A stretch of 37,911 bases of DNA from Candidatus Cloacimonadota bacterium. Its GTDB lineage: Bacteria > Cloacimonadota > Cloacimonadia > JGIOTU-2. The DNA is taken from assembly GCA_030628975.1 (NCBI GenBank), contig DAOVPZ010000001.1, forward strand, positions 1 through 37,911. Reading direction: 5' to 3'. Both the position numbers and the translations under genes were made by a program. Within the stretch, counting starts at the first letter, position 1. Each line of letters begins with the position of its first letter. The notes below the pieces were generated by a model. The model saw only the letters and a list, made by a program, of their open reading frames with translations. It searched no databases and was not told the origin of the DNA. Positions 5,674 through 31,000 of this stretch are shown here, piece by piece.

Positions 5674-5680
5674 GGTGTAT

Positions 5681-6186: not shown

Positions 6187-6190
6187 TATT

Positions 6191-6248: not shown

Positions 6249-6259
6249 AATTATAAATT

Positions 6260-6982: not shown

Positions 6983-7019
6983 AAAATAATAAAAAAACAA
7001 AATTAAAAGGAGAATTAAG

Positions 7020-10240: not shown

Positions 10241-10283
10241 GATTGAAAAACTGCTATCAAAAGAATTCAAGGGAATTACTAAA

Positions 10284-13822: not shown

Positions 13823-13855
13823 AACAATTAATGAACATATTGAGCATTATAAAAA

Positions 13856-14602: not shown

Positions 14603-14727
14603 AGTATAACATTTTAGTAGTAGATGATAATGAACTCAATGTAGAATCAGTCGCAACCTATCTGTTCAATTTCATTGCTCTTTTTTTTCTAAACTATGTT
14701 CTCAGAGTTTTACATGCATTTGAATAA
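14599..14727 (+). pseudogene. Truncated remnant of a response-regulator (REC) gene, paralogous to the 5' end of 16468..17889
   Basis: MKYNILVVDDNELNVESV... compares with MKYNILVVDDNKQFVESI... at 16468. By eye the nucleotide similarity is about three quarters over the first ~52 nt. The sequence then diverges and stops after 42 codons. Confidence 0.6.
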
Positions 14728-14742
14728 CTTAAGATAAAAATT

Positions 14743-16050
14743 ATGAAAAATAATAGATTAACTATTGAGGACATTATAAGGCTTGCTGCTCAGGGAGAAG
14801 GAGAAAATATTGAATTTAAGCTCAAACCTGTAAATATTGCTGAAACTATATGTGCTATGGCAAATACTTCTGGAGGTTATATCATTATAGGTGTAGATAA
14901 TAAAGGTAAGTTGACAGGTATTGCAGAGAAGGAGCAGGAAAGAATACCAGCAGACATTCAAGGTTTGATTCCTACACCCCATATTTCTATAATAAATGTA
15001 AAAGTAAATGAGAAAAATGTTTTAGTTATTAATGTAAAAAAGAGCAAAAGGTTTGTTACTCTTGGTAATAGTGCATACATAAGGATAGGTAGGAGTAATA
15101 AGGCTCTTGATTTAGAAGAACTGGCTATAATTAGTATTGAAGAATTGAAGCTAACCTTTGATTCTCTACCATCATCTGTTTCTAAATCAACTTTAAATCC
15201 ATCTCTTGTCCAGGAATATCTGGAGCTGAGGGAGAAGGTAAGAGGCATACCCATAAGAGGAAATCTTGAAGAAAATATTAAAAAATTGAAAATCATAAAA
15301 GGAGAATATTTGACCATATCTGGTCTTCTCTTTTTCACAGATAAGCCACAAGAACATCTACCCTGGACAGGCATAAGAGTGATTGAAATGTATGCAGATG
15401 GTGAGACAAAAGAGATTCTGGAATTTGACGGTCCTGTATGGAAAGTGATTGATAAAGTCTATGATACACTCATAGTCAAAATTCCAAGAACAGAAATTAG
15501 AACAGGAACCAAAAGAGAGTCCTTTCTTATTTTCCCGGAGGAATCAATAAGGGAAGGAATAATAAACGCAGTTGCGCATAGAAATTACAGAATAAGAGGT
15601 GATATTAGAATTTTCCTATCCCCTGAATCTCTTAGAATAAAAAATCCAGGAAGTTTTCCACCAGGAGTTGACATTGAAGACCCGGAACATATTCCAAGAA
15701 ACCCCATAATTTGCCAATATCTTTATGATATGGGTTATATAGAAAAATATGGATTTGGAATAATAAGAATGAGAAAAGCTGTTGAAGATCATCCAACTGC
15801 ATCAATTGATTTTAATATAGGCGCTTTGAAGACAGAAGTGATATTTGAAAGTAAAAAGAAGGCAACACTAAATGAAAATGAGCGAATAATATTGACACTC
15901 TTAAGAGCAGAACCTCTATCAAGCAGTCAGATTGCTTCACATCTAAAAATGAGCAAAGTAACAATACTTAAGAAACTTGATAGACTGCAGTCAATGAACC
16001 TGATTAAAAAGATAGGCATAGGAAGGAAAACTAAATATACTGTTTCGTAA
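14743..16050 (+). CDS. AlbA_2 (Schlafen-like) / HATPase_c_4 putative DNA-binding protein with C-terminal winged HTH (often annotated RecG-like or 'ATP-binding protein')
   Basis: N-terminal EGENIEFK ... ICAMANTSGGYIIIGVDNKGKLTGI (AlbA_2 pattern); central INAVAHRNY ... IRIKNPGSFP ... RNPIICQYLYDMGYIEKYGFGI; C-terminal ILTLLRAEPLSSSQIASHLKMSKVTILKKLDRL (wHTH). Confidence 0.75.
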   Translation: MKNNRLTIEDIIRLAAQGEGENIEFKLKPVNIAETICAMANTSGGYIIIGVDNKGKLTGIAEKEQERIPADIQGLIPTPHISIINVKVNEKNVLVINVKKSKRFVTLGNSAYIRIGRSNKALDLEELAIISIEELKLTFDSLPSSVSKSTLNPSLVQEYLELREKVRGIPIRGNLEENIKKLKIIKGEYLTISGLLFFTDKPQEHLPWTGIRVIEMYADGETKEILEFDGPVWKVIDKVYDTLIVKIPRTEIRTGTKRESFLIFPEESIREGIINAVAHRNYRIRGDIRIFLSPESLRIKNPGSFPPGVDIEDPEHIPRNPIICQYLYDMGYIEKYGFGIIRMRKAVEDHPTASIDFNIGALKTEVIFESKKKATLNENERIILTLLRAEPLSSSQIASHLKMSKVTILKKLDRLQSMNLIKKIGIGRKTKYTVS

Positions 16051-16308: not shown

Positions 16309-16467
16309 AACCTGCGTGCTATTTACATATGAAACCTACATGTCCTGAAAGAAACTCGGGACACAAAGGAGCATGAAAATTATTAAGGATTTAAAATAGT
16401 TTTATTTTATGAATAAAATATTGTTCGTGTTAGTTCGTGTGGTTCGTGGCAAAAAAAGGATTTTCAG

Positions 16468-17889
16468 ATGAAATATAATATCCTAGTTGTAGATGATAAT
16501 AAACAATTTGTAGAATCTATAAAAATTGCTTTAAAGAAATTTCATATCATAAAAGCATTTTCAATTGAAGAAGCAAAAAATAAGATAAACTCAGAAATAG
16601 ACCTTGTTTTGCTGGATTTAGTATTTGATGAAAACAATCCTGATTATTTGCAAGGGCTGGAATTCTTACCTTATATTCACAAAAATTTTCCGGATTTAAT
16701 TGTAGTAATTATGACAAATTATCCTTCCAAGGACAAAATTGTAGAATCTATTAAATCCGGTGCAGAAGATTTTTTTATTAAAAAAGAATTGGAATGGTCG
16801 GAATGGGAAAAAAGAATAGAAAATTATTGTAGAAATTCACAGAAAATCCGTGAATTAAAAACAAAAAAAAAGGAATTAGAAGAGAAGTATGATGATTCTG
16901 AAATTATTGGAGTTAGTCCTGAAATAGAATTTGTAAAACGGAAACTTCGGGATATAGCACAGCATAGCGATGATATAACTGTCTTTATTCAAGGAGAGAC
17001 CGGAACAGGGAAAAATCTGGCAGTTAAGTATTTCAGAAAATATTCAAAAAGGAAAGAGAAACCATATAAAGAATTTTCTATTTTTGAATTAGCCGATTCT
17101 GTGTTAGAAAGTGAATTATTCGGACATATAAAGGGCTCTTTTACTGGTGCAGATAAAGATAAGATTGGTCTTTTTGAAGCAGCAAATGGAGGCATACTCT
17201 TCCTTGACGAAATTGGTGACTATGATTTAAAAACACAGAAAAAAATTATGAGGTTTATGGAAGATAAGACTATTAGTCCTGTTGGGAGTAACAAAAGTAA
17301 AAAGTTAGACCTCCAATTAATAATGGCAACCAATCAAGATATTCCAGAACTTATCAAAAAAGGTAGATTCAGAGAAGATTTATATCAGAGAATCAATAGG
17401 ATAAAAATTGATTTACCTTCATTAAGAGAAAGAAGAGAGGATATTAAGATTCTAACAGATTACTTTTTTAAACATTTTAGAATAAAAGAAAAAACCAATC
17501 TTAAAGTAATATCAAATGAAGTATATGATATCTTTTACAATTACCAATGGCCTGGTAATGTTAGAGAATTGCAATCAGTTATCTGGGAAGCCTGCACAAA
17601 TGCACGTTTATACAATGATTCAATATTAACTAACAAGCATTTAAGAAAAGAACTAACATCAAAAAATTCTATATTTCAAAACGAAAATGATGATTTAGTA
17701 GTAAAAAAGGCAGAGCTGGAATTAGAAGCGATTGATAAAGCATTAGAAAAAACTTACGGGCGTAAAGCAGAAGCTGCAAAATTGTTGGGAATGAATGCAG
17801 ATCAATTAAGGTATAGGGTATTGAAATTCTATAAAGAAAATAAAATAGATATTAATAAATTTAGAAATATAAGGAAGTATTATGTGTAA
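16468..17889 (+). CDS. Sigma54-dependent response regulator (REC - AAA+ sigma54-interaction domain - Fis-type HTH; NtrC family)
   Basis: REC: ILVVDDN, LVLLDL, VVIMTN, FFIKK. AAA+: Walker A GETGTGKN, GAFTGA-type loop GSFTGA, Walker B ILFLDEIG, FREDLYQRI, WPGNVRELQ. C-terminal GRKAEAAKLLGMNADQLRYRV. Confidence 0.9.
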   Translation: MKYNILVVDDNKQFVESIKIALKKFHIIKAFSIEEAKNKINSEIDLVLLDLVFDENNPDYLQGLEFLPYIHKNFPDLIVVIMTNYPSKDKIVESIKSGAEDFFIKKELEWSEWEKRIENYCRNSQKIRELKTKKKELEEKYDDSEIIGVSPEIEFVKRKLRDIAQHSDDITVFIQGETGTGKNLAVKYFRKYSKRKEKPYKEFSIFELADSVLESELFGHIKGSFTGADKDKIGLFEAANGGILFLDEIGDYDLKTQKKIMRFMEDKTISPVGSNKSKKLDLQLIMATNQDIPELIKKGRFREDLYQRINRIKIDLPSLRERREDIKILTDYFFKHFRIKEKTNLKVISNEVYDIFYNYQWPGNVRELQSVIWEACTNARLYNDSILTNKHLRKELTSKNSIFQNENDDLVVKKAELELEAIDKALEKTYGRKAEAAKLLGMNADQLRYRVLKFYKENKIDINKFRNIRKYYV

Positions 17890-18337
17890 TGCAGACAAAC
17901 TGTTAAAATCGATTATGAACTATGTAAAATATTTAAATACAACTGATAAAAAATTAGATATAAAGATCAATGGAAATAATACTATGACCTTAAATAGTAA
18001 AACTATAAATTTTCAGTATATATTTAATATTGAAGATGATTTATCATTGAGAAAAATAGTTCAAAATTTTGAAGAAAATAATATTACCGATTTTTATGTT
18101 ATAATAGATTTATTCAAAAATATTAATGAATGGATTACAATTGAATATGTTCGTAAATTACAATTAACAATAGATTATTTGGAAAATCATAAAATGGGTA
18201 AAAGACTTTGTCCTTTTGGGGAGAATACGAAAAATTCCTTTGAAATAACCCTGCAATATTTTCATAATCAATCTTTCAAGGATATTTTAGATAAAACCAC
18301 TATAAATAATATAAATATTTATATCTTAAAGGCATAA
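17882..18337 (+). CDS. Hypothetical protein (151 aa)
   Basis: There is an 8-nt overlap with the upstream activator gene, and the next gene starts 3 nt later. I recognise no motif. Confidence 0.55.
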   Translation: MCNADKLLKSIMNYVKYLNTTDKKLDIKINGNNTMTLNSKTINFQYIFNIEDDLSLRKIVQNFEENNITDFYVIIDLFKNINEWITIEYVRKLQLTIDYLENHKMGKRLCPFGENTKNSFEITLQYFHNQSFKDILDKTTINNINIYILKA

Positions 18338-18340
18338 GTA

Positions 18341-21211
18341 ATGGAAAAGATAAAATTTGAGAAATTATTTTTTAAATGTTATAATGTATTAATAAATACT
18401 AAAAAATTAGGTGAATATTTAATAAAAATTGAGAATTATGAAATAACAGAAAAGAATAAAAAAAAGACTAAAAAATCAAAAAAAATTAAATCCAAAGATA
18501 GCAAAAATAATTTTTTAAAAGAACATAAAACAATTATTACTTCAGAAAATTTATCAGATAAGTTATTTGATATTTTAATTAATCATTATAAATCTTCTAG
18601 AGCAGAAAATTATCAAAGTGAATCAACAAGTATAGCTCTCTCTACCTCAACTCATGAAGAGAAGAGAGATTTGGAAGATGAAGAATATAAATGTAATATA
18701 GATGAAGTATTTAAGAACAAAATTTTTCTTTCACTTCATTGGTTTTATGAAGATATGGCTCGTAATCTTGCATGTTCATTTGAAAATTTTAACATAGATA
18801 ATCAAAATAATAAAATTTTAATTATTGATGATAACATTGAGTCAGGTAAATTGAAGAAAAGATATCCACAAATTATCAGAATAATTGAGTACAAGCTCAA
18901 TGAATTAAAAAATTCTAAAAATACAAAAAAAGTAATAAGAGCTGATGTGATAACTGGAGTTAATAATGTAATAGATTTATATGAGCAACTTAATAATTTA
19001 GATAAAATTAAATTAGAAAATGATATTGGGGAAAAGAGAACTTTAAAGTTAAAAGACGTTAAAGTCAAAACTGATGAAAATAGGAGCAATACTACAGATT
19101 TAGAAAAATATCGTTATATCTTTGTTGATCTTTTGATTGGAGAAGAAAATATTGGTTTACAGATTATAAATAGATTAAGGGAACTTCAGGATTATAATTC
19201 CGAACTTAAATATGAAATCATTGCTGTGAGCAGAAGTACCAACACAGAAGATATACAAAAGGCTTTAAATTTTGGTGCTTCTTTTTACATTCCCAAAGAA
19301 CGAATTTTTTCAATTCCTTACCGAATAGCACAATTAGGACCAGAACCGCCTAATTTTATTAATATTGATAAGTCTTTTAAATCTTTGGCAAAATTGCCAA
19401 GAAGAATTCAAAAGTTGCTTCAAACTTCATACTTGAGTTTTAATGGTAAAAAAGATTATAATTGGATTAACTTACTTCCAAAAGCTGATATTCATGTTCA
19501 TTTTGGTGGCTATATGGATGCAAAGATTACTTTGAAACTTTCTTTTTATACAGCTTTACTATCACTTTTAAATTATTTTATTCACGACACTTTTGAAATT
19601 ATTGATAGCAATCTTAGCAAATTGTGGAATGGATTGAATGGGGAAAAGATTAGTGCCGATAATAAGAAGGAATTGCAAAATCTATTGCAAGATATCCAGA
19701 ATCAAGCAAAAATTTATGGAGAATATGCAAAGGATTTATATAAATTATCAAGAATAAAATCAAATACTGGAAATATAGAAATTGAACAAGAACTTAAAAA
19801 TATAAAATCACCTGAGATTTTTTTTGAATATATCGCAGATAAATACAAACACAAATTTTATGGATTAAAACCGTTTCAAGTAATCAGTATTTTTAATGTA
19901 TTCCTCTCTAAAAGTACGGATAGTATTCCAAAAACAGATAACTCTAACCAGAAAGATTTAATGAATATATTAAATTTTGAATTAAATAACAACAATAAGA
20001 AAGACGGGCAAAAAATTATTTTAACGCTTGATAATACTACAAAGGAGATTAAGGAAATTGATGTTAGTAGCCCTAAATTAACAGACAATTTAATAAAGTT
20101 AATTCAGGCAACTCATGGACATAGCATTGATAAGGCTGTTGGAGGTATAACATTAAATTCATTCCTTAAAGGTTGTGATTATACAGGTAGTGATATTCTT
20201 CAAACCAAATATGCAATAAGTGAAGCTGTCCGATATGTTTGCAAGAAAGCTATGAAGGATAATGTTTATTATTTACCATTAAGAGCAACTCCGTTAAATT
20301 TTTGCAGGGGAGGTTTATCAGAAGAGGAAGTTTGGAAAGCAATTAGGACTGGATATAAAGAATTTATAGAAAAAGATATAAATAAAGATGATTATTTTTT
20401 GATTCTCACAATCAAGATAGCTCTAAAACGGCATTATGAAAATAAAGCTATAAAGAAGAATATTAAATTTGGTCTCAAATATAGTTTGGAAAGTCAAATG
20501 AAAGATCATAACCAAAAAAATCAAGATATCAAATATTTTAACTCGAAAGGTTTACCTTCTAAAGATTTTTATAATATTTTGCCTTTTGTTTCTGGATTTG
20601 ATTTAACGGGATTGGAGATAGACTATAATCCTAAAAAATTTAGAGAAGAATTTAAAGAGATATTTGAGCATTGTATACCATTAACAATTCATGCAGGAGA
20701 AGAGACTCCAGCAAAATATATTTGGGAGGCTGCTTATGAACTTCATGCAGATAGAATCGGACATGGTTTATCGTTATCTACCCCTGATGCAAATAAATTG
20801 CGAGACAGATTTAAAGATTTCGATATTTCAATTGAACTGTGTCCTTCAAGCAATTTCTTAACTCAGGAAGGGTTTATGGTTTTTAATCGAGAAACATATT
20901 ATAAATCAAAAAAGGGATCAGAAAGCAACGAACCTAAAGGTGAACAATACCCTTCTTCTGTTTTTCTGGAAAACAATCTTAATTTTGTGGTGTGTACTGA
21001 TGATCCAGCTGTTCAAAATACAGACCTATCTACAGAATATCTGTGGATTTCTGAAATGACATTCAGAGAGCAACAAAAAGGTATAACTAAATGGGAAGCA
21101 TTAAGCTTAATCAGAAATGGGTTTAAATATTGCTTTTTACCTTATGATGTTAAGAGAAAATTACTTAAAATTATTGATCATAAAGTATATAAATTATTAG
21201 AAGGAGAATAA
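18341..21211 (+). CDS. Receiver (REC) domain - adenosine/AMP deaminase family fusion protein (956 aa)
   Basis: REC: ILIIDDN (~18815-18835), YIFVDLLIGEENIG, IIAVSRS, FYIPKE. Deaminase signatures appear in order: ADIHVHFGG (~19484-19510), LTIHAGEE (~20683-20706), ADRIGHG (~20748-20768), VVCTDDPAV (~20987-21013). The N-terminal ~160 aa are unknown and include a Lys-rich tract. Confidence 0.8.
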   Translation: MEKIKFEKLFFKCYNVLINTKKLGEYLIKIENYEITEKNKKKTKKSKKIKSKDSKNNFLKEHKTIITSENLSDKLFDILINHYKSSRAENYQSESTSIALSTSTHEEKRDLEDEEYKCNIDEVFKNKIFLSLHWFYEDMARNLACSFENFNIDNQNNKILIIDDNIESGKLKKRYPQIIRIIEYKLNELKNSKNTKKVIRADVITGVNNVIDLYEQLNNLDKIKLENDIGEKRTLKLKDVKVKTDENRSNTTDLEKYRYIFVDLLIGEENIGLQIINRLRELQDYNSELKYEIIAVSRSTNTEDIQKALNFGASFYIPKERIFSIPYRIAQLGPEPPNFINIDKSFKSLAKLPRRIQKLLQTSYLSFNGKKDYNWINLLPKADIHVHFGGYMDAKITLKLSFYTALLSLLNYFIHDTFEIIDSNLSKLWNGLNGEKISADNKKELQNLLQDIQNQAKIYGEYAKDLYKLSRIKSNTGNIEIEQELKNIKSPEIFFEYIADKYKHKFYGLKPFQVISIFNVFLSKSTDSIPKTDNSNQKDLMNILNFELNNNNKKDGQKIILTLDNTTKEIKEIDVSSPKLTDNLIKLIQATHGHSIDKAVGGITLNSFLKGCDYTGSDILQTKYAISEAVRYVCKKAMKDNVYYLPLRATPLNFCRGGLSEEEVWKAIRTGYKEFIEKDINKDDYFLILTIKIALKRHYENKAIKKNIKFGLKYSLESQMKDHNQKNQDIKYFNSKGLPSKDFYNILPFVSGFDLTGLEIDYNPKKFREEFKEIFEHCIPLTIHAGEETPAKYIWEAAYELHADRIGHGLSLSTPDANKLRDRFKDFDISIELCPSSNFLTQEGFMVFNRETYYKSKKGSESNEPKGEQYPSSVFLENNLNFVVCTDDPAVQNTDLSTEYLWISEMTFREQQKGITKWEALSLIRNGFKYCFLPYDVKRKLLKIIDHKVYKLLEGE

Positions 21212-21216
21212 AATTT

Positions 21217-21582
21217 ATGAAGAAAATGCTTTGGATTTCAATTGTTATAGTTTTTGTTTTTGGATTGGGATTAATTGGCTTGTATGTTTTTCAAAATATC
21301 ACAACAACACCTATATTTGTTACATCAATTGGAAAGATAATTTCTAATCCACGTCCATATGAAGATAAGGTTGTGAAGGTTTATGGTGAAGTAACAAAAC
21401 GAAATTCATTTGTGTTTGTAAAATATTTTTTGCTAAAAGATAAAACAGGTGAGATAGCAATTGTTACAAAAAAGGCTATGCCATCAAAAGGTACGAAATT
21501 AAAAGTAAAGGGTAGAGTAAAAGAGAGCTTTTCTATTGGTGATTATCAATTATTGGTTATAGTACAAGAGGATATAAAATAA
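21217..21582 (+). CDS. Membrane-anchored OB-fold-like small protein
   Basis: An N-terminal TM helix WISIVIVFVFGLGLIGLYVF is followed by a beta-rich region VKVYGEVTKRNSF...KDKTGEIAIVT...KLKVKGRVKE, typical of small OB-fold (BOF/tRNA_anti-like) proteins. Confidence 0.55.
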   Translation: MKKMLWISIVIVFVFGLGLIGLYVFQNITTTPIFVTSIGKIISNPRPYEDKVVKVYGEVTKRNSFVFVKYFLLKDKTGEIAIVTKKAMPSKGTKLKVKGRVKESFSIGDYQLLVIVQEDIK

Positions 21583-21689
21583 CTTGCAGAAATATAAGAT
21601 AATATAAATGCTTAAGTTTATTTTACTTATCATTTATAAAATTACTTGAGTATCAATTAGGAATTGAATCTACTTTTTCATTTTTTAGA

Positions 21690-21893
21690 AAATTTTACCA
21701 ATTATCACTATCAAGAATTTTGGATTCTTTATATATCTTCAAAAATCTTCAATTATTTTTTTAGGATCAATTTCCTGAATCTCAAGTAAATCAATATCTT
21801 CTTGTATAAGATTTGTAAAATATCCTTTGCTTCTTTAAACTTATTATTATTTCCTGTAATGAATGTAATACAATCGTAGTTCATTAAATTCAT
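21690..21893 (-). pseudogene. Decayed 5' remnant of a non-canonical purine NTP pyrophosphatase (ITPase, HAM1/RdgB family)
   Basis: The minus strand reads M(NLM)NYDCITFITGNNNKFKEAKDILQ. After a 1-nt frame slip in a short A run it continues NLIQEDIDLLEIQEIDPKKIIEDF*. This matches the HAM1 N-terminal pattern (xxFxTGNxxKxxEaxxIL ... D.xEiQ...eI), as in human ITPA VFVTGNAKKLEEVVQIL...IDLPEYQGEPDEI. No further HAM1 blocks follow downstream. Confidence 0.45.
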
Positions 21894-21929
21894 TCTTTTC
21901 TATTTAATTCAAACAGTAATTTTTAAATA

Positions 21930-24515
21930 TTACGGTAGTTTATACTCTTCCCACTTCTTTCTTATTTCTTTTTGTTGAGGAGTCCACGAAGCTTCAATCA
22001 ATGAGTTTAGGATGTTCAGATAGCCATCATTATCTTCAACTTCCTGAAGAAATTGAAAGCCGTTAAAGTATTCTTTCGTTTCTTCTGCAGAGGTTCCCAT
22101 AATATCAGTTTCAATTTCATCAATTCTATAATAGTAATTCAAAACTTTAGTTGAAAGCCATTGAGCAGAACCTTCTGTTAAAAACTTATCTTTTCTTGCT
22201 AAAATTCCAACTTGATCCTGCCAATTATGTATATATTCATGTGTTATTACTCCAATTGCATGTTGCTGTCTAAGAGGAATAACCCTTACATTCTTACTAT
22301 TATATATACCTATAGCTCTATCAAGTTTTTTAACGACTTTTAAGGGAACCGGATTTTGAATCCTTATATCCAGATTATTTTTTAATATTTCAGTAATTTT
22401 TCTTTTGATATCATTGTAAAAGTTTGTTAATTTTTTGATATCTTTTATATTTCCTTTTCTAAATTTTATTAGATTTTCATAGCTTTGAATCTCTTTATTT
22501 CCATATATTCTTGCAAAATACATACCGAATTGTTCTTTATTCAAACCCTTAACATCTTGATGATACGCATAATAAATGCATTTACTGCAGCCATTTTCAC
22601 ATGGACATCCTTTTATGGCTTCATAGACAAATTTAAACAATTTTTGGGCTGTACTATTGAAATCAAGATAAAAATTTTTTTCTACAAAATGATATAAACT
22701 ATCCTGATGGGGGAAAATATAGATGTATCTTGAATCATTAATTATAAAGATGAGATTAAAAGGATTTGAAAAAAGTAGGGGTAAAAAATTATACATTGCA
22801 TGTTCAAATTCTTTAGGAAATTTAGTTTCTAATCTTACTCCTCTTACATTTTTTGAAAATATATAGGGATTGCTAAATATTTCAGGAGCATTTCGAGATT
22901 CTTGAGAATAATCTGTAAATAAAATATTTCCATTTTGTTCTAAGTATAATTTAGCTTTTATTGGTGTTACTTTATAATATTTTGTTTCCTTTTCCGTTCC
23001 CATTATTTCAATTTCATCTGTAAATTTAAAATCAATGATTGGGGTAGATCTTGCATAGATTTCACCAGGGGATATAAACTTAATATCTGTTCCTTTTGGA
23101 CTTTCTTCTAAATTGGTTGAAAAACATTTTTCGTTTTCAAAATAGATTTTTCCCTGATATACCTCAAAAGGAAGTAAATCCTTATCAAGTTCTCGATTTC
23201 TTCCAGAAGGATATTGAACATTAATAAAGTTTTTTGAGATAGAACCCCAGTAGGGGATAAAAGTTTCTTTATCCCTTTTGCCACAAATATCTTTCCTAAT
23301 TCTTACAAACATATCTTTTAGTAAATCAGTTTCAGATAGAGGGAAAAGCTTTCGACCAGGTAACTTTTCTATTAGTTTATAATGAGACCACATTAACAAA
23401 TAAGACAATAAATCATCCGGCGGGATAATGAATACACCACCGTTATTTTTAACAAAATTATTAACATTATATTCTAAATCTTTAAAATCTCTAGGCATTC
23501 CAATTATCATTAGATCGTCAAATTTTTTCTGACCGCTTTGGGTAAAACTAGCTAAGTCATCAATTATTGTAATATTTGTTTTTAAAGATAGATGCTGTCG
23601 TATACTGCTTGTTAATCTATCATAAGCAAACCAGATTAATATTTGCACTTCCCCTAAATCCTCTAAAATATTTATTAAGTTACTCACTTCTTCTAAATAA
23701 TTCTCTCTTCTATAACTAAAAGTGTTATTATCGGCTAACAGCTCAACTTTAAACGGAGGAATCCAAAAAAATATATCATTATTATTATTAAATTCTTTTA
23801 TTGAAATGAGCTCAAGAGTTCTATGAATATCTAATATATTACTAAATGATGGAAAATCTTCATCGGAAGAGGAGGTTATAGCAAACCGAGTATTAGAAAA
23901 AAAATCTAATAAGTTGATCAACCGAGTTATAAAGATAATTTCCTTGGGTTTGTATAATTCAATTTTTTCTATTCCAACTAATCCAAGTGAGAATAAAAAA
24001 TCCCTTAGAACTTTATCAGAAGAATATTTCTTTATGCAATTATAAAAAATTTCAGCTGTTGTGATAACAATTTCAGGATAATGTTTTAATTTTTCAATTA
24101 AATGTTCGGATGAGTCTGAAAAGGTAATAGTAAATGGTATAGTTTCTATAATTTTTTGTATACTGGATCTTAACCTTTCACTTTTTTCTTCGAGTTGAGT
24201 TGTATTAGGTAAAAGATAGATAATGGATTGCCCTTGAAAAAAAAGAGTATAAACAGAAAGAATATCAATTGTAGTTGATCTACCTGAACCATATCCACCA
24301 GCAATGAAAATATCTTTATCATCTTGATATGCTAATATAGCTTTTTCCTGAAAGTCAAAAAGTCTTATTCCGATAGCATTCAATACATATTCAAATTGGG
24401 TATTAAGATTATACTTTTCATTTATTTTAGAAGCTTGTATATCTCTATAAAGTAAAAGTTGCCCTTTATATTTTTTATGAGTTTTTATATTTCTAATTAA
24501 CTCGTCATTGCTCAT
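21930..24515 (-). CDS. SF2 helicase-like N-terminal domain / DUF1998-type Cys-cluster domain / HExxH metallopeptidase-like C-terminal domain fusion (861 aa)
   Basis: LFDFQEKAI plus a P-loop-like IAGGYGSGRSTT (~24273-24299), IYLLPNT and VITTAEIF. No clear DExH box is visible (LVGIEKIELY occupies its position). Cys cluster GCPCENGCSKC (22578-22610). HExxH...E block VITHEYIHNWQDQVGILARKDKFLTEGS (~22170-22253). Confidence 0.6.
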   Translation of the reverse strand: MSNDELIRNIKTHKKYKGQLLLYRDIQASKINEKYNLNTQFEYVLNAIGIRLFDFQEKAILAYQDDKDIFIAGGYGSGRSTTIDILSVYTLFFQGQSIIYLLPNTTQLEEKSERLRSSIQKIIETIPFTITFSDSSEHLIEKLKHYPEIVITTAEIFYNCIKKYSSDKVLRDFLFSLGLVGIEKIELYKPKEIIFITRLINLLDFFSNTRFAITSSSDEDFPSFSNILDIHRTLELISIKEFNNNNDIFFWIPPFKVELLADNNTFSYRRENYLEEVSNLINILEDLGEVQILIWFAYDRLTSSIRQHLSLKTNITIIDDLASFTQSGQKKFDDLMIIGMPRDFKDLEYNVNNFVKNNGGVFIIPPDDLLSYLLMWSHYKLIEKLPGRKLFPLSETDLLKDMFVRIRKDICGKRDKETFIPYWGSISKNFINVQYPSGRNRELDKDLLPFEVYQGKIYFENEKCFSTNLEESPKGTDIKFISPGEIYARSTPIIDFKFTDEIEIMGTEKETKYYKVTPIKAKLYLEQNGNILFTDYSQESRNAPEIFSNPYIFSKNVRGVRLETKFPKEFEHAMYNFLPLLFSNPFNLIFIINDSRYIYIFPHQDSLYHFVEKNFYLDFNSTAQKLFKFVYEAIKGCPCENGCSKCIYYAYHQDVKGLNKEQFGMYFARIYGNKEIQSYENLIKFRKGNIKDIKKLTNFYNDIKRKITEILKNNLDIRIQNPVPLKVVKKLDRAIGIYNSKNVRVIPLRQQHAIGVITHEYIHNWQDQVGILARKDKFLTEGSAQWLSTKVLNYYYRIDEIETDIMGTSAEETKEYFNGFQFLQEVEDNDGYLNILNSLIEASWTPQQKEIRKKWEEYKLP

Positions 24516-26323
24516 TGGTTTGCCTTCTTGAATTGAAATAGAGATAATAAAACAATTATGTTGAGTTCTTGATTTTCTGGAAATTCTTTTACAACATTCT
24601 TCTCAATATCTACTCCTTGAGGAATAAAATAATTCTTAGGAATAAAAAGTTTTTTTTGAATAGATAATTCACGATAATCAATCACATCATTAAAATCCCA
24701 TAATAAACCTTTTTCTTGATGTTTATAATAATCATTAAAATACACAGCAATTTCTTGTGTTAGTGAGCCAAGCCTAAAAGATTTGAATTGCTTAAAATAC
24801 TGCTGCGAAAAATAATCATTTAGATCAGATTTATCCAAATTAAGATATATATTAAAATCATCGAGATGAATATTTTCAAAATCATTAGCTGTTGGGATAA
24901 AGAAAATCATCTTCTGTTTGGTAGAGAAAATATTATCTGTTAAATCCTGAGGAGAATTTTCTGTAATTAGCTTTAGACTATCTAAAGATCTTTGTACATA
25001 TTCATATGAGATATTAGTTATCTTTAAGTTAATATAATTAAGATTTCGTTTCCAAATGGAAAGTGGGATTTTCTTATAATCTTGATTAAGGACATTAATT
25101 ATCTTTGCATAACCTTCATCACAAAGATCTTTAATTTCTTTTTTCTTGTTTGATTTTTTCTTTATCCATTTCAATAAAATAACTGTTGATGATATAATTA
25201 ATGCTATTAGAATTGAAGATGGGAGGTCTAATTTTACTTTAAAATGTATTAAAAAGAAAATTATAATTAATAGGATAATGAATAAGTTTAAAATTGTTTT
25301 ATAAGCAAATATGAATTTAAAAAAATTCTTAAATCTCTTATTATATTCATCTAACTCGTCGTTAATTGAATTGGAAAATTTTTGAAATTGTTCTGTAAGA
25401 TTTTCCTTTGCTTCTTCTCTGATTTTTTCAATAAAATTAAAGTTTTGGGACAATGATCTTTTTAATTCTCTAATTTTATGTTTGATATTTTCCTTGAAAT
25501 CGACTAATTTAATCAGTAAGTTTTTGGCACCTTTTATTCTTAACTCTGGTGAAATTGTAGTTATTCTGTTAGATAATTTTTGATTACGAATCGATGTAAG
25601 TATCTTAACTATTTCATACATTTTATTATCATTCAAGTTTTCATCAATTATATTATCAATGGTTCTTTCATCAACTTCAATTTTTAGTTCCTTATCGACA
25701 TCAATATCAAAAGGATTATATAAAAGATAATTAATTTTGAATTGAGTAATATCTAAATCTTCTTTGATAATAGTATATTCAGGAAGAGAAATTCCATTTT
25801 CTTGAGAAATAGTTTTTTGGTAAACCTCATTCATTTTCTGGGGCAATTTAAGAATATTGTCTGGAAGAAAAGTTCTTATTGATAGGACACCATTTAGGTC
25901 GGTTTCTAAATCAGGAAAGATTTGATAAACGGAATAAAGAATCAGCTCTGTTTCTGCATAAGAGATAGGTGTTTTATCAGCTAAATGATAATCATAAAAA
26001 AGAGGACCAGATATCAAACCAGATTTTTTTTTATTACTAATGACATTTTCAATATTTTTATTCCTTTTATGTAAAACGAATAAGACTCTATTATGACTAT
26101 GAACATTGAAAAAATTCCAGAATTTATTGTTTTCATCAGGAAATTCATCTTCATCCTGAATATCTAATATGATAACTATCTCATCTTTTTTTTTAATTTC
26201 TAATTTTAAATTGTTTATTATATCAACTAAATTTCCACAGAAAGCATTAATTCCGAAGTAATTTGAGAACTTAAGATTTCCACCTAAAATCCATAAGATT
26301 TTATTTTTCTTTCTATAATCCAC
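24512..26323 (-). CDS. Hypothetical membrane protein (603 aa, two central TM helices)
   Basis: Central hydrophobic segments are FIFAYKTILNLFIILLIIIFFLIHF and ILIALIISSTVILLKWI. Flanking regions are helical and Lys/Asn-rich. The gene overlaps both neighbours (4 nt and 11 nt). Confidence 0.55.
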   Translation of the reverse strand: MDYRKKNKILWILGGNLKFSNYFGINAFCGNLVDIINNLKLEIKKKDEIVIILDIQDEDEFPDENNKFWNFFNVHSHNRVLFVLHKRNKNIENVISNKKKSGLISGPLFYDYHLADKTPISYAETELILYSVYQIFPDLETDLNGVLSIRTFLPDNILKLPQKMNEVYQKTISQENGISLPEYTIIKEDLDITQFKINYLLYNPFDIDVDKELKIEVDERTIDNIIDENLNDNKMYEIVKILTSIRNQKLSNRITTISPELRIKGAKNLLIKLVDFKENIKHKIRELKRSLSQNFNFIEKIREEAKENLTEQFQKFSNSINDELDEYNKRFKNFFKFIFAYKTILNLFIILLIIIFFLIHFKVKLDLPSSILIALIISSTVILLKWIKKKSNKKKEIKDLCDEGYAKIINVLNQDYKKIPLSIWKRNLNYINLKITNISYEYVQRSLDSLKLITENSPQDLTDNIFSTKQKMIFFIPTANDFENIHLDDFNIYLNLDKSDLNDYFSQQYFKQFKSFRLGSLTQEIAVYFNDYYKHQEKGLLWDFNDVIDYRELSIQKKLFIPKNYFIPQGVDIEKNVVKEFPENQELNIIVLLSLFQFKKANQ

Positions 26324-29300
26324 TTATTCCTGTATGTTCTTTAATTATTGCATCCATATCACTTTTTGAATCACAATAAAATTTTCCATCATAAGAGGAA
26401 ACTTCCCCATTCTTTAATCTTTTTACCTTAACTTTCTCTTTCAAATGTGTCCAAATATTATATGCAGTGATATTTCCTTTTGTTTTAGGTGGTTTTAATG
26501 AATCAAGTTGCTTATCAACATCAACCAATAAACCATTATACTTATTTAATTGATCTGTCCCAGAAAGTGATATATCATAGATTTCTTTTCTTATTTTTAA
26601 TTTTATCTCTTCTTTTATATTATCTGCTATTTTATCTCTTATTTTGTACATTGCTTCAGTGATTCTGCCCAAGTTTGTTTCGCCATAATAATAAGTTTTT
26701 CCTTTGGCTTTCCCCTTTTTTGCACGATGAATAATTCTAAAGCCTAATGCCATCAAGAATAGAAAATCACTAAATGCAAAGCGTGAAGGTTTTTCTATAT
26801 CATCTTTCCATTCATTAAGAAACCTCATATCACCAAAAGGAATAGTACTTGCTTTTCCAGATTTATAAAGTTCATAGGATGAATCTTTCACAGTATTTAA
26901 TAGATATAAGGGGGCACCAAATTGATATGAAAATAGGATAAGACGGAATTGATCGGAATTCATGTCATTTTGGTTATTAAAAACATCTAAAGGAAGATCT
27001 AAATCCGGATGTCGAAAAATTGCGGGAAATTCTTGATTTAATTCAGGAAGACGGAATTCTTTTCTTTTTTCTTCGTTAGAAAATGACCAGAAAGGTTTTA
27101 CTAAATTCCCTAAGGATTTAAAAAATCCTTTGAGAGCAATGTTTATCCATTCTTCTTCACTTAGTTTTTTGTCTTCCAGTGCACCTATTGTCTGAGAACC
27201 AACTTCATAGGAAAGTAATTTAATAAATTTTGCTTTTTCTTCTGGATAACTGAGAAGACCATTATATTCCTTATGTTTTCCTTGGAAATACTTTCTTAAA
27301 GAATGGTCAATCCTAAAATATTTATTTACAGTTTCTTCAATTATTGTATTCAACTTACTCTGGATAATATTATCAAGTTCATCAACAGCATTAATTATGA
27401 TTTTGTCTAAATTTCTGCCTTTGGTTTCAGCTAAGTCTGCATAAATTTCTTGATAATAGAAGTTAATTCCCTTTAATTCTTTATTACTGATAGACATACC
27501 AGACCAAAGAGATAATTTCAACTGATTATCAATATCTTTTTGTTGTAAATCTTTAATAACATTCTTTAAATCATCTACTTCTATTGGGACACTTAGCAAG
27601 AGAGGATACTCTTTCTTTTCAAATTTTTCAGGATCAATAATATTACTTTTATCATAGTGATACCTTGCTTTGAGTTCTTGATATTTACTTTGAAGTTTTT
27701 CATAAATAGCTTTTACTGATTCTACCTGGGAAATCCTGTTTTGCACTATTTCTCGTAGGGTGTGATAAAATGTTTTGAGTTCATCCAATAGGATATCACT
27801 TGTATAAGCATATAAATAAGTATTAGGATTAACTATATTTCTGAAGCCGCTATAAGCAATCCATTCATCAATCAATCCTCTGAATTTATTCCTTTTGAGA
27901 AAAAACTTAGTTGGATTGGTTGGAAATTCACCAAGGTTTTTAATAATATTATTCATGTGTTCAATACGAATGGAATAGGATACTTTAGTTTGATATTTTG
28001 TTTCAACTTTGTTTATTTGAAATTCGATCTTTGTTGTAAGATTTTCAAGATATTGAAGAATGCCTGTAAAATCAAATGTTTGTTGGATATTAGAAGAAAT
28101 TTGAGTCGAAATTTCGTTTCTAAACACATCTTTCTTTGTTAATAAAAATCTATTAATTTCTGATTTCCAGATTGACATTCGATCTCTTATTCCATTTAAT
28201 TCTGTAAGATTGTATTCGGTTAAATTATAATTAAATGTATCTAAATTTCGTGAGCTGCCAACATCGGAAGCAATAGTAGCTGCATAATTTATTAACTCTT
28301 TATAAGATCTATGAGATTTTAATTCATTAGATAATTGACCAGCATCCTCTTCATATATTTTAAGCTGTTTCAAAATTTTTGTGGTATCTTCTAAATCAGT
28401 TCTTTCAAATCCATTGTAAAATTCGTTAATGAATGCCCCTTTAACCCAATTTGAAATTTCTTCATAGGGTACTGTAATTAAAGAAACTGCTGCACTACCG
28501 TAACGTAGTGCTCTTTTAGTTTTTTCCTTCATATGAGTTTCATCTAAATGACCAAAAAACGAAATAATATTTTGCAAACATACTTTGGTGTCTGGAATGG
28601 ATAATGTAAATAATAACCAAGAAGCAAAATCCATGTATTGATCAGGTAAAGCCTGATTGCCAGTAGGTATGAATACGCGCCCATCTAAATTTGTTTCATC
28701 AAGGAGAAATACCATATCAAAAAGTCTGTTAAATTGTTTTTTGGTTGTTGGTAATTTACAATCAAAATATTTCATTTCATATTCTTGGGGCCTTTCCATC
28801 CATCGTTCAAGTTCAGTAAGGGCACCAAAAGCCACAGTTTTGGCTCCTTTATATCCTGCTTTTTCCCAGATATTACCATGAATTAAGACAGAAAATAACT
28901 TATAATTTTCACGAGTACCAATTAAGTTTCTTAGTAAAAAGCCAACATCAATGAACATACCCGCACCAGTTCCCCCACCACTCGAATTTATCAGATATAT
29001 TTTGTGTTCAACTGCTCTGTCGGCTTCTCTAGCTTCTACTCTAGTAGCGCTTCTAAGAACTTTCTCTAATTCATCTCTTAATAAATTGAAATTATGCCAG
29101 AAAATGATCCTACCATTGGCTCTATGCTTCCCAGCCGCATTTCCAGAAACAAGAGCACATTCAGGGTAATAACCTTCTTTCCACCATTTTTTAAATATAT
29201 CATCATCTTTCCAATGTGTATTTATTACATCTTGAGGATTAGAAATACTTACTTGAGTAAAATCAATACTTTGAGTAATTCCAATATTGGGATTATCTAT

Positions 29301-29429
29301 ATCAATACCATGAAATATAACCTCTTTTTCTCCATGTACTTTTGTAAATGTAAAACGACTATATTTTTCTTTGATTCTTGTAACTACATTTACACCTGTG
29401 CCACCAAGACCGATAAATATAGTAGCCAT
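26313..29429 (-). CDS. Large tubulin/FtsZ-superfamily GTPase-like protein (Tubulin_2 / FtsZ-like-1 type, 1038 aa)
   Basis: N-terminal IFIGLGGTGVNVV (T1-like GxGxxG), GNAAGKHRANGRIIFW, and the tubulin signature INSSGGGTGAGMFID (GGGTGAG at 28959-28979). These are followed by a ~800-aa helical extension. Confidence 0.65.
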   Translation of the reverse strand: MATIFIGLGGTGVNVVTRIKEKYSRFTFTKVHGEKEVIFHGIDIDNPNIGITQSIDFTQVSISNPQDVINTHWKDDDIFKKWWKEGYYPECALVSGNAAGKHRANGRIIFWHNFNLLRDELEKVLRSATRVEAREADRAVEHKIYLINSSGGGTGAGMFIDVGFLLRNLIGTRENYKLFSVLIHGNIWEKAGYKGAKTVAFGALTELERWMERPQEYEMKYFDCKLPTTKKQFNRLFDMVFLLDETNLDGRVFIPTGNQALPDQYMDFASWLLFTLSIPDTKVCLQNIISFFGHLDETHMKEKTKRALRYGSAAVSLITVPYEEISNWVKGAFINEFYNGFERTDLEDTTKILKQLKIYEEDAGQLSNELKSHRSYKELINYAATIASDVGSSRNLDTFNYNLTEYNLTELNGIRDRMSIWKSEINRFLLTKKDVFRNEISTQISSNIQQTFDFTGILQYLENLTTKIEFQINKVETKYQTKVSYSIRIEHMNNIIKNLGEFPTNPTKFFLKRNKFRGLIDEWIAYSGFRNIVNPNTYLYAYTSDILLDELKTFYHTLREIVQNRISQVESVKAIYEKLQSKYQELKARYHYDKSNIIDPEKFEKKEYPLLLSVPIEVDDLKNVIKDLQQKDIDNQLKLSLWSGMSISNKELKGINFYYQEIYADLAETKGRNLDKIIINAVDELDNIIQSKLNTIIEETVNKYFRIDHSLRKYFQGKHKEYNGLLSYPEEKAKFIKLLSYEVGSQTIGALEDKKLSEEEWINIALKGFFKSLGNLVKPFWSFSNEEKRKEFRLPELNQEFPAIFRHPDLDLPLDVFNNQNDMNSDQFRLILFSYQFGAPLYLLNTVKDSSYELYKSGKASTIPFGDMRFLNEWKDDIEKPSRFAFSDFLFLMALGFRIIHRAKKGKAKGKTYYYGETNLGRITEAMYKIRDKIADNIKEEIKLKIRKEIYDISLSGTDQLNKYNGLLVDVDKQLDSLKPPKTKGNITAYNIWTHLKEKVKVKRLKNGEVSSYDGKFYCDSKSDMDAIIKEHTGISGL

Positions 29430-29463
29430 AATTAACTCCTTTTGTTTTGATTAATTTTGATAA

Positions 29464-30792
29464 TTATTTTTTATACTGATATCTTACTGTTATTTTTGCA
29501 TATTCTATGCTGTCACCAGACCTTAGAATGATTGGGCTTTTAGATACTGGCATCCCATTTTTGGTAAAATTCTCCTTTTGATTTGGAGAAAGTGAGAATT
29601 TAATCTTTACCTTATTCTTAGATGAATCTGGACAAACCTTAATTGATGGTGGTATTCCCCAACCTTTTCTTAAATCATTAATTGATTTACAGGATTTTCC
29701 ATATAATCTTTTAGGAAACTCATTGCCATCCTTAATAAAAATAAGTTCTCCATGAAAAGATGGAATGGATTTATAAATAATAATAAATATAATAATAGCT
29801 AATAGAATTGCTCCTAAAATATACCAAAAAGTATAATTTGGAATTTTTACAATATATGTAATTACAAATGTATTAGGTTTAATAGTCCCTTTTTTATTAA
29901 GCATTGTAAATTCTATTTTGAATTTATGTTTTCCCTCAGAAAGATCATCAGGTGTATAGGTAATATTGAAATCATTCATTTTTGTTGTTAACAACAGTTC
30001 TTCTTCTTTATTATCAAGTTTTGCTTTTACTTCGCAAGCTTTGGTAATTGATATAATTTTAAAATGTAGACTAAAACTTTCCTTTTTTGCTTGTATTAAT
30101 TTGAACCTCTCCTTTTCTAATTCTAATTTAATTTCTTTTGGTATAATTGGTTCGGGTTCCGGCACTTCGGGTTTGATTACAACTTTTACTCTTTCTGATT
30201 CGCTTTCCATATCACTTATTTCCTCTGGTGCTTCAGTGCCAAAAGAAATATAATAAATATATGAATTCAATGAGTCAATTTTATTCGGACTAAAATATTT
30301 ATTTAATATTTCCTTAAAGTGTTCTGGTTTTTCACCTAAATATGAAGGAGGTTGATTTTTTCCATCTGTAAAAATATAAATATATTTTCTTGTATTAGGA
30401 TATAGTTTGTGTAATTCATTAAGTCTTTTAGCTAATCGATCAAATGCAGCGCTCATATGAGTCCAGTCTTCGTTAAAATCTAAAAAAGAGAATTGGTTAT
30501 ATATTCTTTCTTTATCCTCAACATTATCAATTTTATCATCATAGATTAAACTAATTTTTTCACCAAATCCTATTATCAATAAACTAGAACCAAGTGGAAC
30601 TTCTTTGCTTATAAAGTATTGCAATTCCTTTTTTACTTTTACATCTAAACCTACATCTTTCATACTTCGTGATATATCAACAAGAAAAAAGTAGATATCA
30701 TTATCAGATGATTCAGCCTTAATCTCAATTGTCTGAAATAAAAAAAGAAAGAAGATAATAGCAATTGAAATATAGATATTTTTGTTTGTCAT
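29464..30792 (-). CDS. Secreted/membrane-anchored von Willebrand factor A (vWA) domain protein with a C-terminal cytoplasmic beta-rich domain
   Basis: Signal peptide IAIIFFLFLFQTIEIKA. MIDAS-type FFLVDISRSM (DxSxS) ... THMSAA ... IYIFTDG. TM helix WYILGAILLAIIIFIIIY. The ~100-aa tail (GELIFIKDG...ILRSGDSIEYAKITVRY) could be FHA-like. Confidence 0.65.
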   Translation of the reverse strand: MTNKNIYISIAIIFFLFLFQTIEIKAESSDNDIYFFLVDISRSMKDVGLDVKVKKELQYFISKEVPLGSSLLIIGFGEKISLIYDDKIDNVEDKERIYNQFSFLDFNEDWTHMSAAFDRLAKRLNELHKLYPNTRKYIYIFTDGKNQPPSYLGEKPEHFKEILNKYFSPNKIDSLNSYIYYISFGTEAPEEISDMESESERVKVVIKPEVPEPEPIIPKEIKLELEKERFKLIQAKKESFSLHFKIISITKACEVKAKLDNKEEELLLTTKMNDFNITYTPDDLSEGKHKFKIEFTMLNKKGTIKPNTFVITYIVKIPNYTFWYILGAILLAIIIFIIIYKSIPSFHGELIFIKDGNEFPKRLYGKSCKSINDLRKGWGIPPSIKVCPDSSKNKVKIKFSLSPNQKENFTKNGMPVSKSPIILRSGDSIEYAKITVRYQYKK

Positions 30793-30908
30793 AAAAACTG
30801 CTCCTTTTTATATAAGAATCTTTTTTTCATTTTAATAATTATTAATATTAATTGTCAATAAAAAAAATTATCTATTAACATTCAAAAATAAGAATTGAAA
30901 AATTAATT

Positions 30909-30931
30909 AAAATAACTTGACTATCAAGAAT
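30909..30931 (+). promoter_or_regulatory. Conserved motif AAAATAACTTGACTATCAAGAATT (palindrome CTTGA-CTA-TCAAG at 30916-30928) in the divergent intergenic region
   Basis: It matches 1988-2008. It lies between the divergently transcribed vWA operon (-) and the 31001 gene (+). Confidence 0.35.
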
Positions 30932-31000
30932 TATACATTTTTTTGATGGAAAAAGATTCATAGGATTATTGTCTGCAGAAAAAGTATAAAAGTAGGAAAA

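Follow-up and report, generated by a model that had tools for sequence, protein, structure and literature searches.

A conserved operon of a vWA protein, an FtsZl1 tubulin homologue, a membrane-hairpin protein and a pseudo-helicase-peptidase fusion in Candidatus Cloacimonadota: a candidate conflict module

Here, we describe a four-gene operon in a 37,911-nucleotide (nt) stretch of contig DAOVPZ010000001.1 (GenBank assembly GCA_030628975.1) of a Candidatus Cloacimonadota bacterium; this whole stretch, positions 1 to 37,911, is referred to below as the window. The four open reading frames (ORFs) form one real, conserved operon and encode a von Willebrand factor A (vWA) protein, a tubulin-like protein of the FtsZl1 family, an orphan protein with a predicted transmembrane (TM) hairpin, and a helicase homologue with decayed ATPase motifs that carries a putative zinc peptidase. 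We infer that they constitute an undescribed conflict (anti-mobile-element) module rather than a housekeeping machine, a reading to which we assign a probability of about one half. The evidence comes from the domain architecture of the four proteins, the exchange of most of the operon as one cassette between close relatives, and the genomic linkage of the module to a Cad1-type deaminase.

Operon structure and conservation

The operon comprises the following genes.

29464..30792, minus strand: ORF1, 442 amino acids (aa); signal peptide, periplasmic vWA domain with complete metal ion-dependent adhesion site (MIDAS), beta-rich stalk, one predicted TM helix and 103-aa cytoplasmic tail
26313..29429, minus strand: ORF2, 1038 aa; FtsZl1/Tubulin_2 protein with N-terminal GTPase domain, long helical arm and C-terminal alpha/beta domain
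24512..26323, minus strand: ORF3, 603 aa, GTG start; orphan with predicted central TM hairpin
21930..24515, minus strand: ORF4, 861 aa; homologue of the MrfA/YprA-type superfamily 2 (SF2) helicase with apparently dead ATPase motifs, a four-Cys MZB cluster and a putative C-terminal gluzincin peptidase

All four minus-strand ORFs are present at the coordinates given in the initial annotation, and recomputing the spacing from ORF1 to ORF4 returned the same 34-nt gap followed by overlaps of 11 and 4 nt. ORFs of 442 to 1038 aa are not chance products here, because the DNA of the block has a G+C content of only 25-31% and the same gene order is found in at least 16 independent loci. No terminator-like sites were found on the minus strand inside the four-gene block. 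The best sigma-70-type promoter-like site lies just 5' of ORF1; it was called from the consensus alone, and in this AT-rich DNA sites of the kind are no more frequent than in shuffled sequences.

30829..30858, minus strand: promoter-like site TTGACA-18-TAAAAT, 11 of 12 consensus matches

The four genes were expected to be syntenic in other genomes, and they are. The order of vWA protein, Tubulin_2 protein, hairpin protein of about 600 aa and helicase-peptidase is kept in every type-A locus of sufficient length (type A comprises L001-L012 and L020-L021, with 35-60% protein identity to the window), and also in loci that have diverged to about 20% identity (L016/L017, L018, L019, L022, L023, L028 and L024). 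The loci range in G+C content from 28 to 62%. The diverged loci share a signal or lipoprotein signal, the TM segment and tail, the motif GGGTG[AS]G and the position of the hairpin, so that four or more deep types maintain the architecture even where protein identity is only about 20%. The distribution of the module is nevertheless sparse: a scan of 185,579 species genomes returned a single match, a count limited by the type-A pattern that was used for the scan.

Domain architecture of the four proteins

The identity of ORF2 as a tubulin homologue is apparent from several lines of evidence.

28422-29429, minus strand: N-terminal GTPase domain of ORF2, residues 1-336 (Pfam Tubulin_2)

The protein matches Pfam Tubulin_2 (PF13809) over residues 4-336 with 98.6 bits (cutoff 27; E 5.9e-28). 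Within its T1 loop GLGGTG (residues 7-12) and T4 loop GGGTGAG (residues 151-157), the positions G7, G9, G10, G12, G152, G153, T154 and G157 are without variation in 16 sequences, and both nucleotide-binding loops are kept in types B-D too. An AlphaFold2 model of ORF2 (mean predicted local distance difference test score, pLDDT, 84.4) placed CetZ2, CetZ1, tubulins and FtsZ on top in Foldseek (probability 1.0, best E 6.9e-5), with TM-scores relative to the target of 0.45-0.54. The initial annotation had recognised tubulin/FtsZ motifs followed by a long helical extension in this protein, and had named a failure to model as a tubulin/FtsZ fold as a point that would count against it; the motifs are confirmed by Pfam and the invariant glycines, and the assignment to the tubulin/FtsZ fold, FtsZl1 family, holds in the model. 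The model runs from strands S1-S6 and helix H7 through one further strand and helix into the helical arm, and ends in an alpha/beta domain. It shows no canonical C-terminal activation domain, in agreement with the description of FtsZl1 proteins by Makarova and Koonin (PMC2875224). Other Tubulin_2 proteins nearest to ORF2 are located in trypsin-tubulin-HSP70 operons.

ORF4 combines a helicase-like body with two conserved metal-binding motifs.

22578-22607, minus strand: MZB four-Cys zinc cluster of ORF4, with invariant C637, C639, C643 and C646
22173-22241, minus strand: gluzincin motif of ORF4, HEYIH-x17-E (H759-E-Y-I-H763, 17 residues, E781-G-S-A)

Its DEAD domain match in Pfam reaches 29.3 bits, and a profile built from the nine-member ORF4 family matches Bacillus subtilis YprA/MrfA (PDB 6znp) with an E value of 2.9e-28, aligning profile positions 46-697 to chain residues 42-732, that is, from both RecA-like lobes through the MZB zinc domain. 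Pfam detects DEAD in six of the nine members and MZB in five (best 5.5e-12); window ORF4 on its own scores 17 bits against MZB, below the threshold of 24.2. In common with MrfA/YprA, ORF4 thus has the RecA-like lobes, the intervening domains and the C-terminal four-Cys MZB (DUF1998) domain. It differs in lacking the Walker A lysine and the DExH glutamate, in carrying an extra gluzincin domain of about 160 aa at the C-terminus, and in residing in a membrane operon without an MrfB-type exonuclease. The Walker A motif of window ORF4 reads GSGRST, and the motif II position reads IEKIE. Across type A, the lysine is replaced by R, I or L (GSGRST, GTGIST) and motif II has the form E[KRDH][IV]E; the lysine is retained in L016, L018, L023 and L028, and DE is retained only in L023. 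ATPase motifs have therefore decayed in most lineages, repeatedly, and the peptidase is fixed: CPCxxGCxxC and VI[AT]HEY[AI]H...EG[FS]AQW are without variation in the nine family members, which span 28-62% G+C. The HExxH motif with a downstream Glu in an EGxA context corresponds to the gluzincin (clan MA) signature. Profile similarity to peptidase family M1 lies below the cutoff, with Peptidase_M1 scoring 20.3-23.7 bits (cutoff 27.7; weak matches in seven of nine members) and M1 aminopeptidase chains aligning to the family profile at E values of 0.1-0.2 only.

Of the fusion proposed in the initial annotation, the SF2-like fold, the four-Cys DUF1998-type cluster and HExxH-x17-E stand, and the "P-loop" does not, as it is a GSGRST without the Walker A lysine. 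The label of helicase also has to be corrected, since the window lineage has lost both the lysine and the DExH glutamate, and the peptidase is the invariant part. Judged from its sequence, ORF4 is an MrfA-derived protein with a predictably dead ATPase in this lineage that carries a conserved gluzincin peptidase; it is a homologue and not an active member of the MrfA group, and its helicase part would at most serve as a nucleic-acid-binding scaffold.

The homology to MrfA/YprA over about 650 positions could also be read as that of a membrane-tethered DNA-repair or DNA-processing factor, with the peptidase acting as DNA-protein-crosslink proteases do and the tubulin-like protein putting the complex in place. 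A zinc peptidase attached to a DNA-binding body does recall DNA-dependent proteases. Yet dead ATPase motifs are the rule, in the window as in most lineages, an MrfB-like nuclease partner is absent, the distribution is far too sparse for a repair factor, and such a role would account neither for the obligatory vWA and TM partners nor for the periplasmic domain or the link to the deaminase, so that we consider a role in DNA repair extremely improbable.

ORF1 has the features of a membrane protein with a periplasmic vWA domain.

30250..30696, minus strand: vWA/MIDAS domain of ORF1 (residues about 33-181); outside the swapped cassette described below, 90% identity to L016
29467..29832, minus strand: predicted TM helix (residues 321-339) and cytoplasmic tail (residues 340-442) of ORF1; tail conserved within cassette type, weakly similar to forkhead-associated (FHA) domains

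A hydrophobic N-terminal signal spans residues 6-24 and a single TM segment residues 321-339, and the 103-aa tail (residues 340-442) fits the cytoplasmic side because it is flanked by K/R residues. The MIDAS residues D39, S41, S43, T111 and D143 show no variation in seven homologues. In Pfam, ORF1 itself falls slightly below threshold (VWA_2 24.4 versus 27 bits; VWA 22.1 versus 23.8 bits), and its homologues exceed the vWA threshold with 28.6 to 42.7 bits. The signal peptide, vWA domain with MIDAS, single TM helix and cytoplasmic tail of about 100 aa that had been read from the sequence were thus all recovered. The Ki-67 FHA domain can be aligned in register with a profile of the tail. The match is not significant (E 0.33), and a Trp stands in place of the Arg that binds phosphothreonine; we therefore do not assign an FHA domain and keep the alignment as a lead only.

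The least familiar member is ORF3, in which two central hydrophobic segments (residues 343-361 and 369-387) match the pair of TM helices proposed previously for this 603-aa protein.

25163-25297, minus strand: predicted central TM hairpin of ORF3, residues 343-387

Both large flanking domains are probably cytoplasmic, because the hairpin is flanked by K/R-rich sequence. An exhaustive HMMER search recovered five cluster representatives of the ORF3 family among 1.84 billion, all from this operon family. The AlphaFold2 model is poor (pLDDT 60). Single-sequence and profile searches against PDB found no match, and Foldseek returned generic long-helix matches only (ClyA-type toxins, BAR domains and dynamin stalks; E >0.1). 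The sole hint is a weak PADLOC match (E 3.7e-4) to the stalk and paddle region of the dynamin-like LeoBC. Profile comparison by hhalign was negative against ORF2 and revealed no relation to the 587-aa partner (L014) of HSP70-type tubulin operons.

Exchange of most of the operon as a cassette

Locus L016 derives from a close relative of the window, with 93% identity in the sigma-54 activator, 74% in the deaminase and 79% in a 248-aa protein. Nucleotide identity between the two (blastn) is 82% over window positions 16456-21594 and 89% over positions 30249-30941, whereas no nucleotide similarity was detectable by blastn for the 8.65 kb in between.

21595..30248: exchangeable cassette, 8.65 kb, comprising an inosine triphosphatase (ITPase) remnant, ORF4, ORF3, ORF2 and the stalk, TM helix and tail of ORF1

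In the corresponding gap, L016 encodes the same four-gene architecture, with ORF2 being 24% and ORF4 23% identical and ORF3 unrecognisable. The border lies within ORF1, at the point where the vWA domain ends: identity to the L016 protein is 90% for residues 27-181 and drops to 23% for residues 182-442. The C-terminal part of window ORF1 is about 50% identical to that of type-A loci, and that of L016 is 45% identical to type-B locus L023. The stalk, TM helix and tail of ORF1 hence move with ORF2 to ORF4 as one unit. The joint replacement, with its breakpoint at the vWA boundary, speaks for physical co-adaptation of the swapped parts and is the strongest indication at hand that they interact. 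The swap, in a background of 82-89% identity, also resembles the block turnover of conflict systems.

An imperfect 24-nt direct repeat (20 of 24 positions; 21707-21730 and 30920-30943) flanks the inverted block in its entirety (ITPase remnant through vWA promoter) and may be due to chance in AT-rich DNA. Searches for tRNA genes, Rfam families and border repeats gave nothing convincing beyond this repeat.

Linkage to a Cad1-type deaminase and an ITPase

The initial annotation had treated the four genes as a self-contained system, a view that has to be revised given their linkage to a receiver-domain, Cad1-type adenosine deaminase and to an ITPase.

18341..21211, plus strand: receiver-domain, Cad1-type adenosine deaminase, 956 aa; convergent with the operon in the window, with Pfam, PADLOC and PDB matches
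21748..21884, minus strand: Ham1p-like ITPase pseudogene remnant directly 3' of ORF4; N-terminal 46 codons or so with one frameshift, then stops (tblastn E 7.6e-11)
16468-17889, plus strand: sigma-54 enhancer-binding response regulator, recurrent upstream gene
17882-18337, plus strand: 151-aa protein, recurrent upstream gene
21217..21582, plus strand: TM-anchored OB-fold-like protein (oligonucleotide/oligosaccharide-binding), 121 aa; located between deaminase and vWA genes in L001, L004, L016 and L018

The deaminase has its best PDB match in Cad1 (9c67, 6.9e-23) and matches PADLOC CARF_ADA with 1.8e-81 over residues 344-954 only. Its HxH, HAGE and TDDP motifs are intact. The N-terminus is K-rich and of low complexity, in a stretch of 21% G+C. 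The N-terminal part matches a receiver domain only (Pfam Response_reg 4.5e-5; receiver-type residues DD, D, S and K present) and no CARF sensor, so that the protein falls outside Cad1 proper, an antiviral deaminase that converts ATP to inosine triphosphate (ITP) (PMC11645235). The proteins of this subfamily at related loci are about 860-1030 aa long. In each of the five type-A loci for which upstream sequence is available, the gene lies immediately upstream of the module on its strand; it is convergent with the module in the window and L016/L017, and is also present in L018, behind an insertion sequence (IS) of the rve family, and in L019. All nine inspected loci of this deaminase subfamily adjoin the module, and the module adjoins a deaminase in nine of 12 informative loci, the modules of L022, L023 and L028 having none in the available flanks. 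This asymmetry suggests that the deaminase was added to a core formed by the module, and these three loci rule out the deaminase as an obligate component.

A Ham1p-like ITPase with intact catalytic Asp is encoded 3' of ORF4 in L001, L007, L008, L012 and L021, and upstream of the deaminase in L019, that is, in two different positions in the locus overall. The Kongming HAM1 sensor KomB has a His at the catalytic position; a KomB-like dead HAM1 sensor was therefore ruled out, as the ITPase keeps the Asp. Both deaminase and ITPase are regarded here as neighbours of the four-gene module, not as members.

The linkage also allows for the interpretation that the module is a sensory input arm only, detecting an envelope signal and controlling the receiver-domain deaminase and the sigma-54 activator in place of a missing histidine kinase, with the deaminase and its regulon doing the work. 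Three receiver-domain proteins and no histidine kinase are in sight in the island, the sigma-54 activator is recurrent, and the deaminase subfamily stands beside the module in all inspected loci. However, L022, L023 and L028 carry modules without an adjacent deaminase or sigma-54 activator, no sigma-54 promoter was found 5' of the operon, and none of the domains of ORF1 to ORF4 is known to phosphorylate receivers. As the ORF4 peptidase is invariant, an output of the module's own is implied. We thus regard a pure input function as unlikely.

Comparison with described systems

The initial annotation took the gene combination for a candidate uncharacterised system and could match it to no named one. 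The pairing itself was not new: FtsZl1-vWA operons were described by comparative genomics in 2010 by Makarova and Koonin, who put forward a membrane-remodelling hypothesis (PMC2875224). The partner set, by contrast, matched no description, and searches of PADLOC, NCBIfam and the literature were negative for a named system; no paper found in full-text searches combines tubulin-like, vWA, hairpin and helicase-peptidase parts. The operons described in 2010 resemble the present one in encoding a protein of about 1000 aa in which an FtsZ-like GTPase domain at the N-terminus is followed by a long helical or coiled-coil region and a further domain at the C-terminus. They likewise have a neighbouring vWA gene, whose product has an intact MIDAS and a signal peptide or TM segments, and membrane-associated, lineage-specific partners. 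Those partners, however, are GTPases, protein kinases, OmpA-like proteins and families A1-A2 and B1-B9, with no helicase, MZB or peptidase among them, no link to a deaminase or ITPase, and no cassette exchange reported (PMC2875224).

Tubulin-vWA neighbourhoods were reinterpreted by Kaur et al. in 2020 as DO-GTPase/GAP1-N2 conflict systems (PMC7159879), and vWA-tubulin associations near CRISPR loci received a passing mention in 2023. Like our locus, the systems of Kaur et al. have tubulin homologues with C-terminal helical extensions beside outward-facing membrane vWA proteins, and they are read as conflict systems that depend on NTP and set a threshold, in some cases with peptidase steps. Our locus lacks the defining DO-GTPase and GAP1 pair, as well as the fibronectin type III (FNIII) proteins and HSP70, and has the MrfA-like helicase-gluzincin fusion and the hairpin protein in their place. 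ORF1 to ORF4 have no GTPase or GAP1 family match in Pfam or NCBIfam and thus lie outside the DO-GTPase/GAP1 group, and the text of that study mentions neither DUF1998 nor adenosine deaminase (PMC7159879).

DISARM pairs an SF2 helicase (DrmA) with a DUF1998-type zinc module (DrmB) in a defence context. Neither DrmA nor DrmB was matched by ORF1 to ORF4 or the deaminase in PADLOC, which places the locus outside DISARM; a DrmC match to ORF1 (E 0.027) was at chance level and discarded. Unlike DISARM, the locus encodes no methylase and no phospholipase D (PLD) nuclease, and the helicase and zinc module reside within one MrfA-like polypeptide. Among deaminase-based systems, the linked deaminase is closest to Cad1, with a receiver-like instead of a CARF sensor. 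RADAR and Kongming differ in that our locus lacks the RdrA ATPase and SIR2. The pairing of a deaminase with a HAM1-family protein is shared with Kongming (KomABC), but with no SIR2, with the HAM1 Asp kept in related loci where KomB has His, and with the HAM1 gene a pseudogene in the window, the locus does not belong to that system.

Other genes of the window and related loci

Mobile-element genes occur at two of the related loci. An rve-family IS transposase lies between the deaminase block and the vWA gene of L018 (13494-14489), and a phage-type integrase is encoded 2.4 kb downstream of the module in L023 (15027-16181), a locus that also contains a metallo-beta-lactamase. In L012, a zinc-ribbon protein with a probable FGE-sulfatase domain, assigned by sequence alone, is encoded two genes downstream of the module (6044-6997); a formylglycine-generating-enzyme-type (FGE) domain was highlighted by Kaur et al. 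in related conflict systems (PMC7159879).

Upstream of the sigma-54 activator, the window encodes a Schlafen/AlbA_2 protein with HATPase_c_4 and helix-turn-helix domains (14743-16050, plus strand) that has PADLOC matches to models associated with prokaryotic Argonautes (pAgo). Positions 14649-15868 are without counterpart in L016, which retains only the last 180 nt or so. Four genes further upstream (9080-14602, plus strand; 386, 776, 403 and 248 aa) have no Pfam or PADLOC match. Of these, the 776-, 403- and 248-aa proteins are also encoded upstream of the deaminase in L016 and L018, and the 248-aa protein in L001 and L019 as well; the genes may belong to the same island or constitute a candidate system of their own. 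Positions 2584-8141 are occupied by a branched-chain amino-acid ABC transporter operon of the liv type, with two genes for 23S_rRNA_IVP/bAvd-like four-helix-bundle proteins between its permease and ATPase genes (3546-3923 and 5818-6186, plus strand). The modules of L022 and L028 likewise have liv genes on their flanks, and at the start of L019 there is a gene for a periplasmic binding protein of the liv type. A sigma-54-type -24/-12 match, TGGCATAATTTTTGT (2161-2175, plus strand), lies 39 nt 5' of a stand-alone receiver-domain gene (2214-2582); this pattern is not above shuffles.

Functional interpretation

It is tempting to propose that the four proteins form one membrane-anchored complex. 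ORF1 would be a type-I membrane protein whose periplasmic metal-binding vWA domain may sense signals on the envelope side. Tubulin-like ORF2 would act as a nucleotide-dependent switch or, by GTP-dependent assembly, as a platform at the membrane, and ORF3 would be a hairpin-anchored member of the complex, 603 aa in length. The helicase-like and zinc-ribbon body of ORF4 might sense nucleic acid, and its invariant zinc peptidase would be the output, acting on a putative protein substrate. In this lineage, the Cad1-type deaminase would be a coupled add-on effector, expected to convert ATP to ITP, and a catalytically intact ITPase could serve as a safeguard or reset, which has decayed to a pseudogene in the window.

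As support for a conflict role we count the MrfA-wide homology of ORF4, conservation across deep types, block replacement, IS and integrase neighbours, the deaminase linkage, the recurrence of an ITPase with its Asp, the sparse distribution, and the presence of distant Tubulin_2 proteins in the conflict operons of Kaur et al. Several observations weigh against it. ORF1 to ORF4 have no defence-system match in PADLOC, NCBIfam or Pfam apart from the weak LeoBC match of ORF3, and searches of plasmids, phages and viral contigs did not find the module. Flanks are largely housekeeping, with liv transporter genes and redox enzymes, and the defence-flavoured neighbours in the window are only the deaminase and the Schlafen/AlbA_2 protein. 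Deep divergence combined with block exchange could reflect old alleles instead of an arms race. Since the canonical C-terminal activation domain is missing, polymerisation of FtsZl1 is not assured, and the counts of loci are small and partly biased by the way the loci were found. In L022 and L023, moreover, MlaD-like and CvpA genes directly upstream of the vWA gene abut the module, a neighbourhood that fits an envelope function equally well.

The latter points to the main rival of the conflict module, namely a membrane-remodelling or envelope-maintenance machine, in which the tubulin-like and hairpin proteins would shape or repair the inner membrane, the vWA protein would link to the periplasm, and the peptidase would process envelope proteins. 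Such a role was predicted by Makarova and Koonin for FtsZl1-vWA operons (PMC2875224), two of the four proteins are predicted to be membrane-anchored, and ORF3 weakly resembles the stalk and paddle of LeoBC. The housekeeping flanks are in line with it, as are the MlaD-like/CvpA genes and, at the same position in other loci, the TM-anchored OB-fold protein. The 121-aa OB-fold protein has no similarity to the MlaD-like proteins. Remodelling, however, leaves unexplained the full MrfA-type helicase and zinc-ribbon body, the tight link to a Cad1-type deaminase and ITPase, the cassette replacement between near-identical backgrounds, the very sparse distribution, and the IS and integrase neighbours. 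We consider this alternative possible, if rather doubtful, and favour the conflict module.

A more daring version of the conflict module would make it a tubulin-based immune receptor for a base-modified nucleotide. Briefly, ITP, a GTP analogue with which the deaminase would flood the cell, would be the assembly ligand of the FtsZl1 protein at the membrane and would license the zinc peptidase, the ITPase would set the threshold and reset the system, and modules without a deaminase would run on GTP. We deem this version very unlikely; if true, no cytoskeletal-fold NTPase before it would have served prokaryotic immunity as a switch driven by a second messenger.

Within the tubulin superfamily, no branch is more divergent than the FtsZl1/Tubulin_2 proteins, and no experimental function was found for them 15 years after their description. 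The locus described here is a compact four-gene version with mutable motifs (MIDAS, GGGTGAG, the Cys4 cluster and HEYIH), and the linked Cad1-type ATP deaminase and ITPase provide an output that can be measured. The swap of cassette types of about 20% identity behind a constant periplasmic vWA domain is a natural experiment that predicts which parts are in contact. Should the module prove to be defensive, known bacterial immunity would gain a tubulin-fold switch and a protease gated by a pseudo-helicase; if not, the module would still be a tractable entry to the biology of the FtsZl1 family.

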